DNA of 26,257 nucleotides. Origin: Gammaproteobacteria bacterium (GTDB lineage: Bacteria > Pseudomonadota > Gammaproteobacteria > SZUA-229). Below the pieces are notes generated by a model, which saw only the letters and a program-made list of their open reading frames with translations, did no database searches and was not told the DNA's origin. The position numbers and the translations under genes are program-made. This document shows positions 14,393-20,365 of the stretch, in pieces; position 1 is the stretch's first letter, and each line of letters opens with the position of its first letter. The DNA lies in assembly GCA_041563375.1 (NCBI GenBank), contig JBFFND010000001.1:1-26257 (forward strand). Reading direction: 5' to 3'.

Positions 14393-14432
14393 ATAAAAAA
14401 AGCCGCACAGTTAAACAGTGCGGCTTTTTTAT
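14393..14432. terminator. Bidirectional Rho-independent terminator
   Basis: AAAAAAGCCGCAC / GTGCGGCTTTTTT 13-bp stem with a 9-nt loop, between the convergent S49 and DUF5666 genes. Confidence 0.88.
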
Positions 14433-14458: not shown

Positions 14459-15901
14459 CTAGTCTTCAATTTCTACCGAGTCCGCAACTCCATCAGGTCC
14501 GCCATTTTCCACTTTATCTTCAATACTGATCACGGTCTGATCAATATCTATGAGCGTAATGAAATTCGCCCAGTTACTCACAGTGCTACCATCGCCATCT
14601 TCATAATCGGTGACGTTGTCATCCACAGTAAAGGCCACACCCAGCACAGTCACCGAATTATTACTATGCGCCGTGACTACGCCCTGCAGCTCGGTATCTT
14701 TTATCTCAGCTTCACGTTTTACCCGTGTCGCAGCTACAGTGTTTACACCTTCTTCAAATCCCAGCACATCAACAAAATCACCCATTTGTAACTCGCTCAA
14801 TAACAGGTGATCGTCACTGCCTGCGGCGTCATCTTCCATGCGCGTGATACTGCTAATCTGTACTGTCACTGAAGGTTGTGTACTGATAACTTCCAGTGTA
14901 AAGCTGTTACTTTGTATATCTATGGTATCGACTCTGGCACTGATTTCAGCATTTCCACCACGCAGCTCAATCTCGTCCGCGATCAGCACACCGTTTACAA
15001 CTGTGCCTTCGACTTCTATTTTAATGCCAGCACTTAACTGTAACGCACTACTAATATTCGAGGCATCTACGGGTATACCGTTCACTTCAAAGTGATTATT
15101 GTCTGTGTAGCTGGTGATATAACCTTCGATTTCTACCTCATCGGCATCATCGAAGAGATCATCTTCAGCTTCTATCTGGGTTGCACGCAATCTATTAGCA
15201 GCCACATCAAAAGTACCTTTTACGTCAACCAGAAGTCCCTCCTGCAAGCCGTTGCTAAAGCCTTCGAATACACTGACTGATGTAGTATCGACAGTAATAC
15301 CCTGAATCGTGAACAGGTTACTCGAAAGGTTACTGATAAGGCCTTTGACTTCCACCTCACTAGAGCCATCGAAGGTAGATGATTTCAGCTTTACATAACT
15401 CGCCTGCAGGTCACCATTCTGGTCATAAAAACCACTGACCTCGACGACATTACCCTGAACAATCGAACCGAAGTCCACCCCTTCATAGGCGGTATCCGCC
15501 TGGGTAATAATGACTGTCTGCCCCATAATCGTGAAGGATTTTTCAGTCGGGCTCAGGTCCTGTATATCATCAGCCACCGGCCCCTGTAATTCATTCGAGT
15601 ACCGGATGCTTGTTGCTGTGCCTGTGATGCCATCGGCGTTCACATTTCCAGTGAGTTGCACCACCATACCAATCCGCAAATCCTGCTGACTGCCATCAAC
15701 ACCTTCAATATTGAAGGTTGACTGGTCGGTTTCATATTCAACGCCATTGACAAACACACTGCCAAAACCGGTGACTGTGCCACTGGAAATAAAACCACTG
15801 CCGCCGATACCGGCCAGATCGACACCGCCGTTACAGGCAGCCATTATCATTGCGGCCAGCACAGGCATAGCAAAGCGCGTGTTAGTGAATTGATGTTTCA
15901 T
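14459..15901 (-). CDS. DUF5666-repeat lipoprotein, acidic, about six repeats
   Basis: Signal peptide with lipobox-like MAAC (Cys23), then AGIGGSG and GTVTGFGSVFVNGVEY. Repeated units G-x-[IV]...F-x-[VI]-x-G...G-x-x-V-[EDQ]-V-x-G. Family recognised from memory. Confidence 0.78.
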   Translation of the reverse strand: MKHQFTNTRFAMPVLAAMIMAACNGGVDLAGIGGSGFISSGTVTGFGSVFVNGVEYETDQSTFNIEGVDGSQQDLRIGMVVQLTGNVNADGITGTATSIRYSNELQGPVADDIQDLSPTEKSFTIMGQTVIITQADTAYEGVDFGSIVQGNVVEVSGFYDQNGDLQASYVKLKSSTFDGSSEVEVKGLISNLSSNLFTIQGITVDTTSVSVFEGFSNGLQEGLLVDVKGTFDVAANRLRATQIEAEDDLFDDADEVEIEGYITSYTDNNHFEVNGIPVDASNISSALQLSAGIKIEVEGTVVNGVLIADEIELRGGNAEISARVDTIDIQSNSFTLEVISTQPSVTVQISSITRMEDDAAGSDDHLLLSELQMGDFVDVLGFEEGVNTVAATRVKREAEIKDTELQGVVTAHSNNSVTVLGVAFTVDDNVTDYEDGDGSTVSNWANFITLIDIDQTVISIEDKVENGGPDGVADSVEIED

Positions 15902-16704
15902 TTATCTGACTCCTTTTCCAGGGTACTCCGGTAAAAATAAATACCCAGACTGACGTACTCGGCCTCATCTGCCGCTCTCGCCTGATGTTCACTCAGCCAG
16001 CTATCGAGTTCTTCCAGCAGCGTCTGGGCTCGCCGGTTTGCATATTTCTGGAAGGCTGGCACATGTGCTCTATCCAGCTGCTGGCTAGAGACCTTTCTCT
16101 GGAAATGCTTGTGCTGCTGATCAGCCGTCATATTGTGGACAACGGTTTGCATAAGCTCATGACTGTCTGTGCCCAGGATATCAATCAGATCAACCGGATC
16201 ATTGCCCGGCACATAGGCATGAGTAATTAAGTGCAACCGATCACCATGTTTCTCAACACAACCGCTTTGCTCAAGCAGATCGAGCATGGCGCGGGGGGGG
16301 ATATCACCACTGTAATCCTTTACCAGGCTGGCAAAAGACGCCTCACCGTCCATTAATAAGGACTGGGGGACTCCTTCTGTATTACAGAACCGTGTATCAT
16401 TTAACCAGCCGCTGATCACACGAACTGCACGGTTATATTTCTGCCCCTGTGCGTAGGATATGTCCTCGTCCTGCTCCAGCAGTCGCTTAACCTCCTTGCG
16501 TGACAGGCCGGTTTTCGCCGATACTGATGAAACCGTGGCCTTACCCTCCTGGGCCGCAGCTGCGAAAGCCTGCTCAACATAACTCCTGCGCACCAGCTGC
16601 TCAAAATCTGCACAGGCCACACCGTTGCGCAGCAGAACCCGCACCAGTGGCGCGAGAATCTGCATGGCAGCTTGGCTCAGTACCTGATTGATGCTCTTTC
16701 CCAT
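15898..16704 (-). CDS. DUF6502-family protein with N-terminal HTH-like segment
   Basis: ILAPLVRVLLRNGV, HTH-like SSVSAKTGLSRKEVKRLL, RVISGW, SFASLVKDYSGDIPPRAMLDLL, FQRKV and C-terminal SLGIYFY. Its TGA overlaps the ATG of the lipoprotein gene (ATGA). Confidence 0.75.
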   Translation of the reverse strand: MGKSINQVLSQAAMQILAPLVRVLLRNGVACADFEQLVRRSYVEQAFAAAAQEGKATVSSVSAKTGLSRKEVKRLLEQDEDISYAQGQKYNRAVRVISGWLNDTRFCNTEGVPQSLLMDGEASFASLVKDYSGDIPPRAMLDLLEQSGCVEKHGDRLHLITHAYVPGNDPVDLIDILGTDSHELMQTVVHNMTADQQHKHFQRKVSSQQLDRAHVPAFQKYANRRAQTLLEELDSWLSEHQARAADEAEYVSLGIYFYRSTLEKESDK

Positions 16705-16740
16705 AATTGGGAATATATTCCCATTCTGGTATCAGGTCAA
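16698..16740 (-). promoter_or_regulatory. Sigma70 promoter overlapped by a palindromic operator
   Basis: TTGACC (16740-16735), N17, TATATT (16717-16712). Perfect palindrome TGGGAATATATTCCCA at 16708-16723. Extra half-site TTCCCA at 16698-16703 overlaps the start codon. Confidence 0.8.
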
Positions 16741-16979
16741 GCCCTTTTGAGTTGTTTTATCAGCATTATTCAGCCGTCCAGCATGCCCTGCGTAAAAGCC
16801 AGGAGCACACCTCGTAACAATTCAAAAATAACTCAGAAATAAAAGCCAAGACTGTGATTTTATTAAAAAATTAATCTGTATCCGCTAGCGGGAGTGGATG
16901 CTTCGGTCTATGCTCTATCTACTCATTTGCGTATCTGTCAACGGTGCGCGGGATAATAAGAACAACAAACGGGGGGTTA

Positions 16980-19544
16980 ATGAAGCAGGCATTCTGGAAA
17001 AAAGACTGGGTCACCGGTCTTGCCATATGCATTGTGGTGATTGCACTGGGAAGGATCGGCCTGTTCGATAGCCTGGAACACAATGCGTATGACCTTGGGG
17101 TGCAGGCCTCCTCACAGAATGCCAGCGACAAGATCGCGGTGATTGCAATTGATGATGTAAGCATCGCCAATATCGGCCGCTGGCCCTGGTCACGTAATGT
17201 GCATGCAGAAATGCAACAGCTGCTAACAGACGGTGGCGCCAGGGTCATCGCACAGACTGTTTTTTTTGTAGAACCGCAACTCGACCCCGGCCTGATGCAC
17301 ATCCAGCAACTGCTGCAGTTCTATGCCAACAGCGAGCTGTTGCAAATGCAGCAGAAAAACCCGTCGATTAGCGCCGACATTGCCGAACTGGGTAATCGAC
17401 TGCTGACAGCGGAAAAAGACCTGAATAGCGACCAGACCCTGGCTAACAGCCTGCGTGCCAGCGACAATGTGATTCTCGCCATGCAGATGAAAAGTGACAA
17501 GCCCATCGGCCGCCCTGATACATCACTCCCCGATTATGTGAGCCGCAACCAGTTTCTGAATATAAAAAACAACCCAGCCACCAACCCCGATAATGCCATG
17601 CCCCTGCCGGTATCTGAGATTCTCTATCCAATTGAACTGCTGGGGCGTGAAGCCGACAGTATCGGTGCGCTGTCCACCTACCGTGAAGCCGACGGCAGCA
17701 TTCGTTCCGAACCACTGGTGCTGGATTACTATAACCAGATGTATCCGTCCCTGTCGTTGCAAATTGCCATGCGCAGTCTGAACCTCGGTCCCGATGATGT
17801 GATTATTAACCTGGGTGAAAGTGTACAGCTCGGTGGACTGACCATTAAAACCAACCCCAACCTGCTGATGAATACCTTTTTCTACAGTAACAGCAACGGC
17901 CCGGTGTTCTCGGTAGATTCATTTTATGACGTACTCGCCGGTAAAATTCCCGCCAGCAAATACAAGGGAAAAACCGTACTTATCGGTGCCACGGCGGTGG
18001 GTGTGGGCAATAGTATGATCACGCCGATCAATGCCAGTATGGCACCGGTACTGACGCTGGCACATTCGGTTTCCAGCATTCTTAACGAAGATTTTTTTAT
18101 CCAGCCACAATGGAGCAGCCAGGTTATTAATGGCATCACCCTGGGGATTGCGCTGTACATTATCCTGCTGCTACCCCGCATGAATGCCGCTCTGTCGACC
18201 ACCGTAAGCCTGATTATCTTAAGCGCACTGCTAGTCACCCATTTCACACTAATGACCAGCCATGGCCTGTGGCTGCAGTTGATGAACCCGGCGATATTAC
18301 TGGTAGCTGGGCATATATTGATAACATCAAAGCGCTACCTGGTCACCGAAAAAGGCAAGCTGGCACTGGATGCCGAATCGGCAGAAACCAATCGTATGCT
18401 GGGTTTATCGCTGCAGGGACAGGGCCAGCTGGATGCGGCCTTTGAAAAATTCCGTCGCCTGCCAAAATCCAACGAAAAACTGGAACTGCTTTATAATCTG
18501 GCACTGGATTTCGAGCGCAAGCGTGTCTTCAATAAAGCAGTATCGGTTTATCAGGTAATCAGCGAACTCAATCCGAAATTCCGCGATGTCAAGGATCGCA
18601 GCTACCGGGCCGAAGCCATGGATGCCAGCGTGATTCTGGGTGGTGCCTCCGCCTCTTCGCGCGGTCTCAGGCTGGATAAAAAGGGTTTTGAAAAGCCCAT
18701 GCTGGGCCGCTACGCCGTAGAAAAGGAAATCGGCAAAGGCGCCATGGGCTCCGTGTATCTGGGACGCGACCCGAAAATCGCACGTATAGTGGCAATTAAA
18801 ACCATGGCGCTTGCCCAGGAGTTCGAGGAAGACGAACTACAGGAAGTGAAAGCGCGCTTTTTCCGCGAAGCCGAAACTGCCGGCCGTTTAAGCCACCCCA
18901 ACATTGTCACCATTTACGATGCCGGCGAGGAACATGACCTGGCCTATATCGCCATGGAATACCTGAAAGGTCATGACCTGGTGCGTTACAGCAAGGCAGA
19001 CAATCTACTGCCGGTGATCAAGGTAATGGACATTATCCGTCGCGCCGCCGAAGCCCTGCACTATGCACATCAGCAGAATGTAGTACACCGTGACATTAAA
19101 CCCGCCAATGTGATGTACGAAGCGGAAACCGATAGTTTGAAAATCACCGATTTCGGCATTGCCCGTATCACCGATTCGAGCAAAACCAAAACCGGCATGG
19201 TACTGGGAACCCCGTCCTATATGTCGCCGGAACAGCTGTCAGGCAAAAAGGTTGATGGCCGCTCCGACCTGTTCTCACTGGGGGTAATGATGTTCCAGCT
19301 GGTCACCGGGCGACTGCCGTTCCAGGGTGAGTCCATGGCAACACTGATGTTTAAAATTGCCAATGAGCCACACCCCAAGCCGGACACCATTCGCCCTGAA
19401 TTACCACGCTGCGTCACCGTGATCATTAATCGCGCACTGGCCAAAGACCCGGAAAAACGCTATCAAACAGGTGCACAGATGGCATCAGACCTGCGTAAAT
19501 GCATGCAGCTGGCAGCCATGCAAAAGAAGGCTGAGCAGCAATGA
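16980..19544 (+). CDS. Membrane-bound CHASE2-domain Hanks-type Ser/Thr protein kinase with TPR-like linker
   Basis: IAVIAIDDVSIANIGRWPWSR and GKTVLIGATA (CHASE2), flanked by 1+3 TM helices. Kinase motifs GKGAMG, VAIK, HRDIKPAN, DFG, GTPSYMSPE and DLFSLG. Start set at ATG 16980, preceded by GGGGGG. Confidence 0.93.
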   Translation: MKQAFWKKDWVTGLAICIVVIALGRIGLFDSLEHNAYDLGVQASSQNASDKIAVIAIDDVSIANIGRWPWSRNVHAEMQQLLTDGGARVIAQTVFFVEPQLDPGLMHIQQLLQFYANSELLQMQQKNPSISADIAELGNRLLTAEKDLNSDQTLANSLRASDNVILAMQMKSDKPIGRPDTSLPDYVSRNQFLNIKNNPATNPDNAMPLPVSEILYPIELLGREADSIGALSTYREADGSIRSEPLVLDYYNQMYPSLSLQIAMRSLNLGPDDVIINLGESVQLGGLTIKTNPNLLMNTFFYSNSNGPVFSVDSFYDVLAGKIPASKYKGKTVLIGATAVGVGNSMITPINASMAPVLTLAHSVSSILNEDFFIQPQWSSQVINGITLGIALYIILLLPRMNAALSTTVSLIILSALLVTHFTLMTSHGLWLQLMNPAILLVAGHILITSKRYLVTEKGKLALDAESAETNRMLGLSLQGQGQLDAAFEKFRRLPKSNEKLELLYNLALDFERKRVFNKAVSVYQVISELNPKFRDVKDRSYRAEAMDASVILGGASASSRGLRLDKKGFEKPMLGRYAVEKEIGKGAMGSVYLGRDPKIARIVAIKTMALAQEFEEDELQEVKARFFREAETAGRLSHPNIVTIYDAGEEHDLAYIAMEYLKGHDLVRYSKADNLLPVIKVMDIIRRAAEALHYAHQQNVVHRDIKPANVMYEAETDSLKITDFGIARITDSSKTKTGMVLGTPSYMSPEQLSGKKVDGRSDLFSLGVMMFQLVTGRLPFQGESMATLMFKIANEPHPKPDTIRPELPRCVTVIINRALAKDPEKRYQTGAQMASDLRKCMQLAAMQKKAEQQ

Positions 19545-20365
19545 GCCTGGCCGATAAAATCAGCATCAGCGGCATTACCGATACAGGACTGGTGCGCAGC
19601 AATAATGAGGACACCATCGGCAGCGACGCAGAGCTGGGATTACTGGTGCTGGCAGACGGCATGGGCGGCCACAAGGGCGGTGAAGTTGCCAGCGCGATTG
19701 CGGTGGACTCCATTCTGCAGGAACTGCGAAAGGTGTTACCCGAAATAGTCAGTGGCAAGATCGACGATAAAACCGGCTACAGCCTGGAAAGCATGGCCGT
19801 TGAAACCGCGATCAAAAATGCCAACAGCCATATATACCGTACCGCGCAGGATAATTCGCAGTATGAAGGCATGGGCACCACTGTTGTGGTGCTACTGTTT
19901 TATGATAATCGCATCACAGTTGCACACGTTGGCGATTCTCGCCTGTATCGACTGCGTGACACACTGCTGGAACAACTGACCCGTGACCACACACTGTTAC
20001 AGGAGCTGGTGGACCGGGGGTTTTATACACGCAAGGAAGCGCGTGAGTCGCTAAACAAAAATCTGGTGACCCGTGCGGTGGGAGTGAGTCCAAGCGTAGA
20101 GATTGATCTACAGGAAGACATTGCACTACAGAATGATCTGTACCTGCTTTGCTCTGATGGGCTTACCGATATGATCAGCGATGACCTGATTGAGGACATT
20201 CAGCTCAACTATAAAAACGATCTGGAAAAAATGAACCAGGAGTTAATCAAACAGGCCAAAGACCATGGTGGCAAAGATAATGTTTCGGTGATGCTTGCCC
20301 AGGTACTCAAGGAGTATCCGGCCAACTCCGCCTGGTATTCACGAATCTTTAACTTGTTATCCTGA
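19541..20365 (+). CDS. PP2C/PPM-family Ser/Thr phosphatase (Stp1/PrpC-like)
   Basis: TDTGLVRSNNED, LADGMGGHKGGEVAS, GMGTT, HVGDSRLY, LLCSDGL and GGKDNVSV motifs. ATGA overlap with the kinase gene. Confidence 0.95.
   Translation: MSLADKISISGITDTGLVRSNNEDTIGSDAELGLLVLADGMGGHKGGEVASAIAVDSILQELRKVLPEIVSGKIDDKTGYSLESMAVETAIKNANSHIYRTAQDNSQYEGMGTTVVVLLFYDNRITVAHVGDSRLYRLRDTLLEQLTRDHTLLQELVDRGFYTRKEARESLNKNLVTRAVGVSPSVEIDLQEDIALQNDLYLLCSDGLTDMISDDLIEDIQLNYKNDLEKMNQELIKQAKDHGGKDNVSVMLAQVLKEYPANSAWYSRIFNLLS

Follow-up and report, generated by a model that had tools for sequence, protein, structure and literature searches.

A conserved palindrome built around the promoter of DUF6502 genes, and the prediction of a self-regulating transcription factor with a HetR-like fold

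In the stretch of DNA considered here (the window: 26,257 nucleotides of a Gammaproteobacteria bacterium, positions 1 to 26,257 of contig JBFFND010000001.1 in assembly GCA_041563375.1), a gene for a protein of the DUF6502 family is joined by an ATGA overlap to a gene for a DUF5666 lipoprotein, and the two form an operon that ends in an intrinsic terminator (Table 1). The promoter and operator elements of the DUF6502 gene are all read on the minus strand: a -35 hexamer, a -10 hexamer lying inside a perfect palindrome, and the ATG close behind it. A first-pass annotation, made from the letters alone, had described this promoter, the palindrome around its -10 hexamer and three TGGGAA half-sites, and each of these elements lies exactly where it had been placed; an ATG only 7 nt behind the -10 hexamer and the lack of a Shine-Dalgarno sequence, also claimed there, are borne out by the sequence. 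The TTGACC/TATATT pair scores 10/12 in a promoter scan, and its -10 hexamer is offset by one base from the centre of the dyad. The ATG is the earliest possible start downstream of an in-frame TGA, which lies 27 nt 5′ of it, and alignments of orthologues begin at residue 1, in line with this start. Between the promoter and the ATG, there is no space for a Shine-Dalgarno sequence. Other kinds of promoter were considered and rejected: a sigma-54 promoter because there is no GC at -12, an extended -10 promoter because there is no TG at -15/-14, and a MerR-type layout, in which the dyad is centred in an overlong spacer of 19-20 bp, because the spacer here has 17 nt and the dyad centres on the -10 hexamer.

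Table 1. Features of the DUF6502-DUF5666 operon in the window, and two candidate sites on contig C199 of the same genome (aa, amino acids; ORF, open reading frame)
Feature	Position	Strand	Basis or remark
-35 hexamer TTGACC	16735-16740	-	promoter scan; 17-nt spacer to the -10 hexamer
-10 hexamer TATATT, inside the palindrome	16712-16717	-	sequence and promoter scan
Perfect 16-bp palindrome TGGGAATATATTCCCA, predicted DUF6502 operator	16708-16723	.	encloses the -10 hexamer
ATG, predicted leaderless start	16702-16704	-	sequence geometry; 7 nt (cccaatt) past the -10 hexamer
Third TGGGAA half-site over codons 1-3 (ATG GGA AAG), probably fortuitous	16698-16703	-	read in the sequence
DUF6502 gene, 268 aa	15898-16704	-	Pfam PF20112, E 4.9e-51
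DUF5666 lipoprotein gene, 480 codons, second in the operon	14459-15901	-	Pfam PF18914, E 8.3e-46, six repeats
Intrinsic terminator hairpin (A-run, GC stem, U-run), readable on both strands, closing the operon	14396-14430	-	RNA fold
Candidate site TGGGAACATATTCCCA	C199 322-337		intergenic, ahead of a 303-aa ORF without a Pfam family, then a 525-aa multihaem cytochrome c
Candidate site TGGGATATTATTCCCA	C199 2906-2921		directly past the stop codon of the 525-aa cytochrome gene, ahead of a 516-aa multihaem cytochrome c

Is the palindrome more than a chance arrangement of letters? A search for the dyad pattern that tolerates one mismatch finds a single copy in the window; of 100 shuffles, 5 contain at least one. 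In the 2.83-Mb genome, TGGGAW-N4-WTCCCA is found in four copies, against none for the reversed control, and the window palindrome is the top match of the genome to a weight matrix made from the sites of other genomes (30.0 bits, against a maximum of 12.1 in the reversed genome). The decisive evidence that the dyad is not due to chance is its conservation in other genomes. All 11 orthologues taken from relatives (57-62% protein identity) have TGGGA(A/T)TATAATCCCA, once with CGGGA, at a distance of 6-8 nt ahead of the ATG, and the DNA flanking the dyad in these relatives does not align.

A wider sample of 80 DUF6502 loci (30-63% protein identity) was fetched from a species-level genome collection by means of a peptide pattern in the protein, so that the upstream DNA forms an unbiased sample. 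It includes metagenome-assembled genomes labelled Planctomycetota, Nitrospirota, Spirochaetota and Thermodesulfobacteriota. Cultured bacteria in the sample that carry the cassette are Thiomicrorhabdus arctica DSM 13458 (L053), Thiomicrorhabdus chilensis DSM 12352 (L051), Pseudohalioglobus sediminis (L060) and Pseudohalioglobus lutimaris (L061). At 49 of the 80 loci the dyad lies at -17 to -21 from the start codon, and a conserved dyad over the -10 region upstream of homologues, which the first-pass annotation had named as its own test, has thus been found. Ten loci carry the dyad at -43 to -64, with the same promoter and a short leader, three at -113 to -270, and ten farther upstream, where it probably stands ahead of an upstream gene in the cluster; it is no more than 300 nt from the start codon in 62 of the 80. 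Placement over the -10 region is narrow: of 48 such sites, 32 leave 3 nt between the dyad and the start codon, 11 leave 4 nt and 3 leave 2 nt (2-4 nt in 46/48), and the gene opens with ATG at 46 of them and with GTG at two. Most homologous loci have a TTGAC-like hexamer 16-18 nt 5′ of the -10 hexamer. The -10 positions in 41 aligned 16-bp sites read TATAAT (21 sites), TATATT (5 sites) or other A/T-rich sequences, and a column consensus shows conservation confined to the -35 hexamer, the dyad and a few T/A positions in the flanks. The consensus of the predicted DUF6502 operator is TTTGGGAWTATAWTCCCAAA, or ATTTGGGATTATAATCCCAAAT when symmetrised, within which TGGGA-N6-TCCCA, around a centre resembling TATAAT, is the conserved core. 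The motif first put forward, TGGGAA-N4-TTCCCA, accordingly survives as a dyad, but not in that exact form. In some loci (L057, L067, L073), a second dyad is located 5′ of the -35 hexamer, and is therefore unable to serve as a -10 element. The palindrome in the window is the local copy of a predicted operator that is kept before DUF6502 genes across phyla.

Both arms of the site are altered together in the more distant members of the family. In the most distant clade (L098-L104; 30-32% identity), TGGGGTAAACTACCCCA stands at the same place, having the form TGGGGTA-N3-TACCCCA (7-3-7), and the paralogues L016-L018 (21-24% identity) have two tandem TGGGA-N5-TCCCA dyads 100-160 nt ahead of the ATG, with no TATAAT hexamer in their N5-spaced sites. 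The helix-turn-helix (HTH) region of the protein also differs among these groups: the main group has TGLSRKEVKRL, the distant clade TGISRKEVKRQ and the paralogues TG(V/I)HRKD(I/V)KR, so that RLxE in the recognition-helix region becomes RQRE in L098-L104 and the paralogues carry the changes S68H and E71D. The joint change of the arms suggests that the dyad is read by a dimeric protein rather than by RNA polymerase alone. When 41 related genomes were compared, 23 N6 dyads were counted in the 12 with an orthologue of DUF6502 and 9 in the 29 without, the latter number being near chance (about 0.7 per genome by our estimate). The use of N5 dyads as a marker of paralogue-bearing genomes was rejected: they adjoin each paralogue, yet occur at chance frequency overall.

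What kind of protein would read such a site? Residues 8-244 of the 268 match positions 3-241 of the Pfam model PF20112 with 173.6 bits, against a cut-off of 27, and no other Pfam family was found in the protein at E ≤ 0.01, including no TetR_N or lambda-repressor domain. The family is large, comprising 6,013 clusters at 50% identity (E ≤ 1e-3). An AlphaFold2 model built with 150 diverse sequences has a predicted local distance difference test (pLDDT) score of 91.4 and a predicted template modelling score (pTM) of 0.77; with a shallow alignment the pLDDT was 71. Two long N-terminal helices come first, followed by an HTH; behind these lie a middle domain, which contains a winged-helix-like unit (124-159), and a C-terminal part made of helices. 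The predicted HTH (58-77) consists of helices 58-65 and 69-77, in blocks modelled at pLDDT 89-98, and T65, G66, R69 and K70 reach at least 90% conservation across the 150 representatives, which were collected by a HMMER search that did not use the HTH motif.

A Foldseek search of the PDB with this model has returned HetR, a regulator of heterocyst-forming cyanobacteria, in all of the top eight places (E 5.8e-4 to 5e-2, probability 0.87-1.0, about 300 columns, 13-14% identity), complexes of HetR with DNA being the only full-length matches (PDB 4J00, 4IZZ, 4YRV, 4HRI and 3QOD; hetP operator). The template modelling (TM) scores of these matches are 0.34-0.43 and the root-mean-square deviations 12-14 Å, and differences in the orientation of the domains could explain the low TM scores. 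Matches ranked after HetR have E >0.17 and are short winged-helix alignments; the weaker first model (pLDDT 71) likewise gave HetR. At the level of sequence, searches for a link to HetR were negative: the HetR model of Pfam (Peptidase_S48, PF03574) has no match in this genome at E ≤ 10; HMMER profiles of DUF6502 found no HetR chain among PDB sequences; and hhalign, run with the 150-sequence DUF6502 alignment against 62 distinct HetR sequences, gave a probability of 1% and an off-register alignment, both for whole proteins and for DNA-binding domains. These 62 sequences had been collected from metagenome contigs with a degenerate pattern built on a PDB-verified peptide. Beyond DUF6502 clusters, the Protein Atlas offered only weak pointers to DUF4423 and to regulators of the XRE type. 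DUF6502 is thus predicted to be an HTH protein whose closest fold, as judged from the model, is that of a palindrome-binding transcription factor.

HetR, so far regarded as a fold of its own, is mainly an activator that works from upstream sites, activating hetP and hetR itself, and it is released by RGSGR-type peptides. It is a transcription factor of three domains that forms an intertwined dimer, and the essential consensus of its DNA site is GGG-N5-CCC, which is read by Arg62, Lys73 and Glu71 (PMC4649674). The likeness of the DUF6502 protein to HetR lies in its size (268 against 299 residues), in the order of its domains (an N-terminal helical DNA-binding domain with an HTH, a middle domain and a C-terminal domain), in an inverted repeat with a GGG...CCC core, which on the DUF6502 side belongs to a predicted operator, and in autoregulation, predicted for DUF6502 and also a property of the hetR gene. 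Both proteins have an E-x-K-R motif in the recognition helix, E71-P-K73-R74 in the PDB chain of HetR and E71-V-K73-R74 in DUF6502 (TGLSRKEVKRLLE). Counted from the TG turn, the Glu is displaced by one residue between the two proteins, which makes the equivalence of residues ambiguous, and equivalence of the shared motif is therefore not claimed. The two systems differ also in the spacing of the arms, GGG-N8-CCC for DUF6502 against GGG-N5-CCC, and in the place of the site: HetR activates from upstream, whereas the DUF6502 site covers the -10 hexamer. On the evidence of the model, HetR appears to be the nearest structure known and to offer a good analogy of function, while membership of DUF6502 in the HetR family is not established.

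The layout of the site recalls another kind of regulator. Autoregulated HTH repressors with an operator over their own promoter and a leaderless mRNA are known from lambda cI at PRM and from TetR of Tn1721. Here, too, a palindrome, the predicted operator, lies across the core promoter of the gene that encodes the regulator, the start codon stands at the predicted start of transcription with no Shine-Dalgarno sequence, and the regulator gene is the first in the controlled unit. The DUF6502 system differs from these in that the protein family and fold are unrelated, that a single operator around the -10 hexamer takes the place of tandem operators, and that the layout is a fixed promoter-operator cassette kept across phyla.

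Taken together, the sites and the predicted fold make it probable, in our judgement, that a DUF6502 dimer seated on the GGG/CCC arms represses its own leaderless operon, together with a few envelope and redox genes, and that some input relieves the repression. An outline of the proposed process is as follows. The sigma-70 promoter of the DUF6502-DUF5666 operon would have its operator built around the -10 hexamer. Transcription would start at the A of the ATG or a few nucleotides from it to yield a leaderless mRNA; from the geometry of promoter and start codon, we infer a leaderless start at this ATG. A DUF6502 dimer would set its two HTH motifs on the GGG/CCC arms and cover about -18 to -3, and, once bound, would exclude RNA polymerase or block the formation of the open complex, so that the protein represses its own synthesis. 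A signal would relieve this repression; sensing may proceed via the middle or the C-terminal domain and is perhaps linked to the exported DUF5666 partner. The leaderless layout would be that of the majority rather than universal, as the ten loci with promoter and operator 43-64 nt before the ATG illustrate.

Several observations weigh against this proposal or narrow its basis. Eight of the 80 loci have no dyad in the DNA covered. No RNA run was found that contains the window, and at the Thiomicrorhabdus chilensis locus the RNA contigs of four metatranscriptome runs miss the 5′ end, lying in internal and 3′ parts only. The overall frequency of N5 dyads is about that expected by chance, and they occur also in genomes without a DUF6502 match. 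The link between protein and site is correlative, and, by design, one site in each genome adjoins the gene. Conservation of the HTH motif in L025-L104 is in part an effect of ascertainment, because the motif formed part of the search pattern. As for the analogy, HetR, the nearest fold, is chiefly an activator, and homology to HetR in sequence was rejected for want of any profile signal.

Where else in the genome might the protein act? A scan for a regulon, as proposed in the first-pass annotation, gave two more strong candidate sites, both on contig C199 (locus L111), with 25.4 and 22.1 bits against the reversed-genome maximum of 12.1. We infer from these matches that DUF6502 would also act at two operators beside the multihaem cytochrome cluster of C199, which forms a candidate regulon. 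The weight-matrix match C22:3313 and the exact-pattern match C293:2022 lie inside ORFs and were dismissed as chance or coding. Genomes of the same genus have extra sites ahead of additional DUF5666 lipoprotein genes, and others between an AhpC/TSA-like gene with a cytochrome operon and a gene for a very large multihaem cytochrome lipoprotein. In five genomes (G011, G002, G004, G005 and G008), a second cassette is present about 1.5 kb 5′ of the DUF6502 site, before another DUF5666 lipoprotein gene. That of G011 (L105 2354-2369) is followed by an ATG and three codons only (MKK, stop), and resembles the remnant of a leaderless start. An orthologous dyad stands in a divergent intergenic region at L106 1856-1871 (G004 C48) and L108 1847-1862 (G008 C33): an AhpC/TSA-like gene and then a multihaem cytochrome gene lie on one flank, and in G004 the other flank codes for a multihaem cytochrome lipoprotein longer than 662 aa. 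The words TTCCCA/TGGGAA are also part of a dispersed hairpin resembling a repetitive extragenic palindrome (REP), CTCGTTCCCACGC-N4-GCGTGGGAACGAG, of which 17 copies occur on 14 contigs (for example at C4:15047 and C17:14824) and none in the window; it is GC-rich, everted and positionally unrelated to the operator.

The proposal of a repressor has to be weighed against other ways of reading the same site. DUF6502 might bind the dyad as a real operator and yet activate, or have a dual role like HetR, which as the nearest fold is an activator; the second dyads 5′ of the -35 hexamer stand at a position typical of activators. This is unlikely, since the main site lies over the -10 hexamer and extends to within 3-4 nt of the start point, where a bound protein would clash with sigma region 2, and since the promoter is near consensus in both score and spacer, so that activation should not be needed. 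Nor do we attach much probability to another regulator, encoded elsewhere, that binds the dyad at DUF6502-DUF5666 operons and at cytochrome genes while DUF6502 has some other role. Such a regulator would agree with the correlative nature of the assignment and with the dyads at C199 and in G004, G006, G008 and G010, which are remote from DUF6502 genes. However, the dyad accompanies the gene across phyla that otherwise share little, it alters when the HTH region of DUF6502 alters, related genomes without the gene have no more A/T-centred N6 dyads than chance would give, and DUF6502 itself has a predicted HTH and the fold of a transcription factor. Could no transcription factor be involved, the conserved flanks being elements of the promoter or of leaderless initiation that are touched by RNA polymerase? 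The overlap with the -10 hexamer and the discriminator and the tightly fixed position relative to the start codon would suit such elements. Against them stand flanks that are symmetric and co-vary symmetrically (TGGGA/TCCCA to TGGGGTA/TACCCCA), the same dyad 5′ of the -35 hexamer and at 40-270 nt before other start codons, the N5 sites of the paralogues with no TATAAT hexamer, and a promoter that, lacking TG at -15/-14, is not of the extended -10 type; we regard this explanation as highly improbable.

A separate question concerns the extent of the operator in the window. The third half-site had been taken to form, with its neighbour, a second dyad overlapping the first and covering the start codon, and the three half-sites at 10-bp spacing could in principle be a three-part operator that carries repression across the start codon. 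All three hexamers are exactly as first described, and the same arrangement is seen in L045 (51% identity), which shares TCCCAATTATGGGAA with the window. Among about 92 loci, however, ATGGGAA occurs in these two only, and the third half-site is probably due to chance because it recurs in just one other locus examined; ATGGG follows the dyad in 4 of the loci, roughly as expected, by our estimate, for a Gly at position 2. A dimer fitted to an inverted repeat would, moreover, fit an everted pair differently. The third half-site and the second dyad are thus present but not conserved, and a functional role for them was rejected; they are probably a by-product of Gly-Lys codons, and a three-part operator is very unlikely.

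As for the rest of the operon and its surroundings, the terminator hairpin folds at -29.3 kcal/mol (z = -4.1), none of 200 shuffles being equally stable, and was not picked up by a simple terminator scan. It sits between the convergent gene of an S49 peptidase and the DUF5666 gene and is probably a bidirectional terminator. Upstream of DUF6502, a divergent operon (window 16944-20365) encodes a CHASE2 Ser/Thr kinase and then a PP2C phosphatase. The likely start of the kinase is the ATG at 16981, behind a G-rich run resembling a Shine-Dalgarno sequence, and no DUF6502-type dyad was found upstream of this operon. The kinase/phosphatase neighbourhood is not common to relatives, several genomes of the same genus having a second DUF5666 lipoprotein gene upstream instead. 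A downstream ORF is visible in 74 loci, and most of these ORFs encode a lipoprotein with the same N-terminal motifs as the DUF5666 partner. In the window, residues 31-36 of the lipoprotein (15794-15811, minus strand) form a strongly conserved GIGGSG at the mature N-terminus, followed by G(T/S)(V/I)TGFGS(V/I)FVNGV. G[IVL]GG[ST]G, just past the lipobox and a glycine-rich linker, is present in 43 of the 74 downstream ORFs (L025-L104), and in the clade with the altered operator, GIGRTG replaces GIGGSG in the partner lipoprotein.

The GIGGSG motif recalls a known precursor: PatX, after export, is cut to HRGTGR, a peptide that inactivates HetR (PMC12756182). Nothing links the two so far. By analogy, DUF6502 and its DUF5666 partner might work like the HetR-PatX pair in many non-cyanobacterial phyla, a short glycine-rich peptide, set free outside the cytoplasm from the mature N-terminus of the lipoprotein, returning to act on the C-terminal domain of the regulator and so free the operator; we put this forward as a speculation that is doubtful at best.

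An autoregulated HTH repressor with an operator over its own promoter is a well-known kind of system. What appears to be new is the DUF6502 family as a predicted regulator, a HetR-like fold modelled outside cyanobacteria and a fixed promoter-operator cassette. In the literature searched (8.4 million papers and preprints), no paper naming DUF6502 or PF20112 was found, and DUF5666 was found only in tables of expression or proteome data. A large family without a published function thus gains a testable role, that of a predicted self-regulating transcription factor, and a testable DNA motif, TTTGGGAWTATAWTCCCAAA. Its candidate regulon, consisting of DUF5666 envelope lipoproteins and, in this genus, of multihaem cytochromes c, hints at control of periplasmic or extracellular redox processes in Gammaproteobacteria resembling sulfur oxidisers. 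The cassette is compact and nearly invariant across phyla, and could serve as a portable regulatory part. The structural link suggests that HetR may have distant relatives beyond cyanobacteria, and, if the HetR-PatX-like reading of DUF6502 and its partner were true, peptide signalling of the HetR type would be ancient and widespread rather than a cyanobacterial invention.

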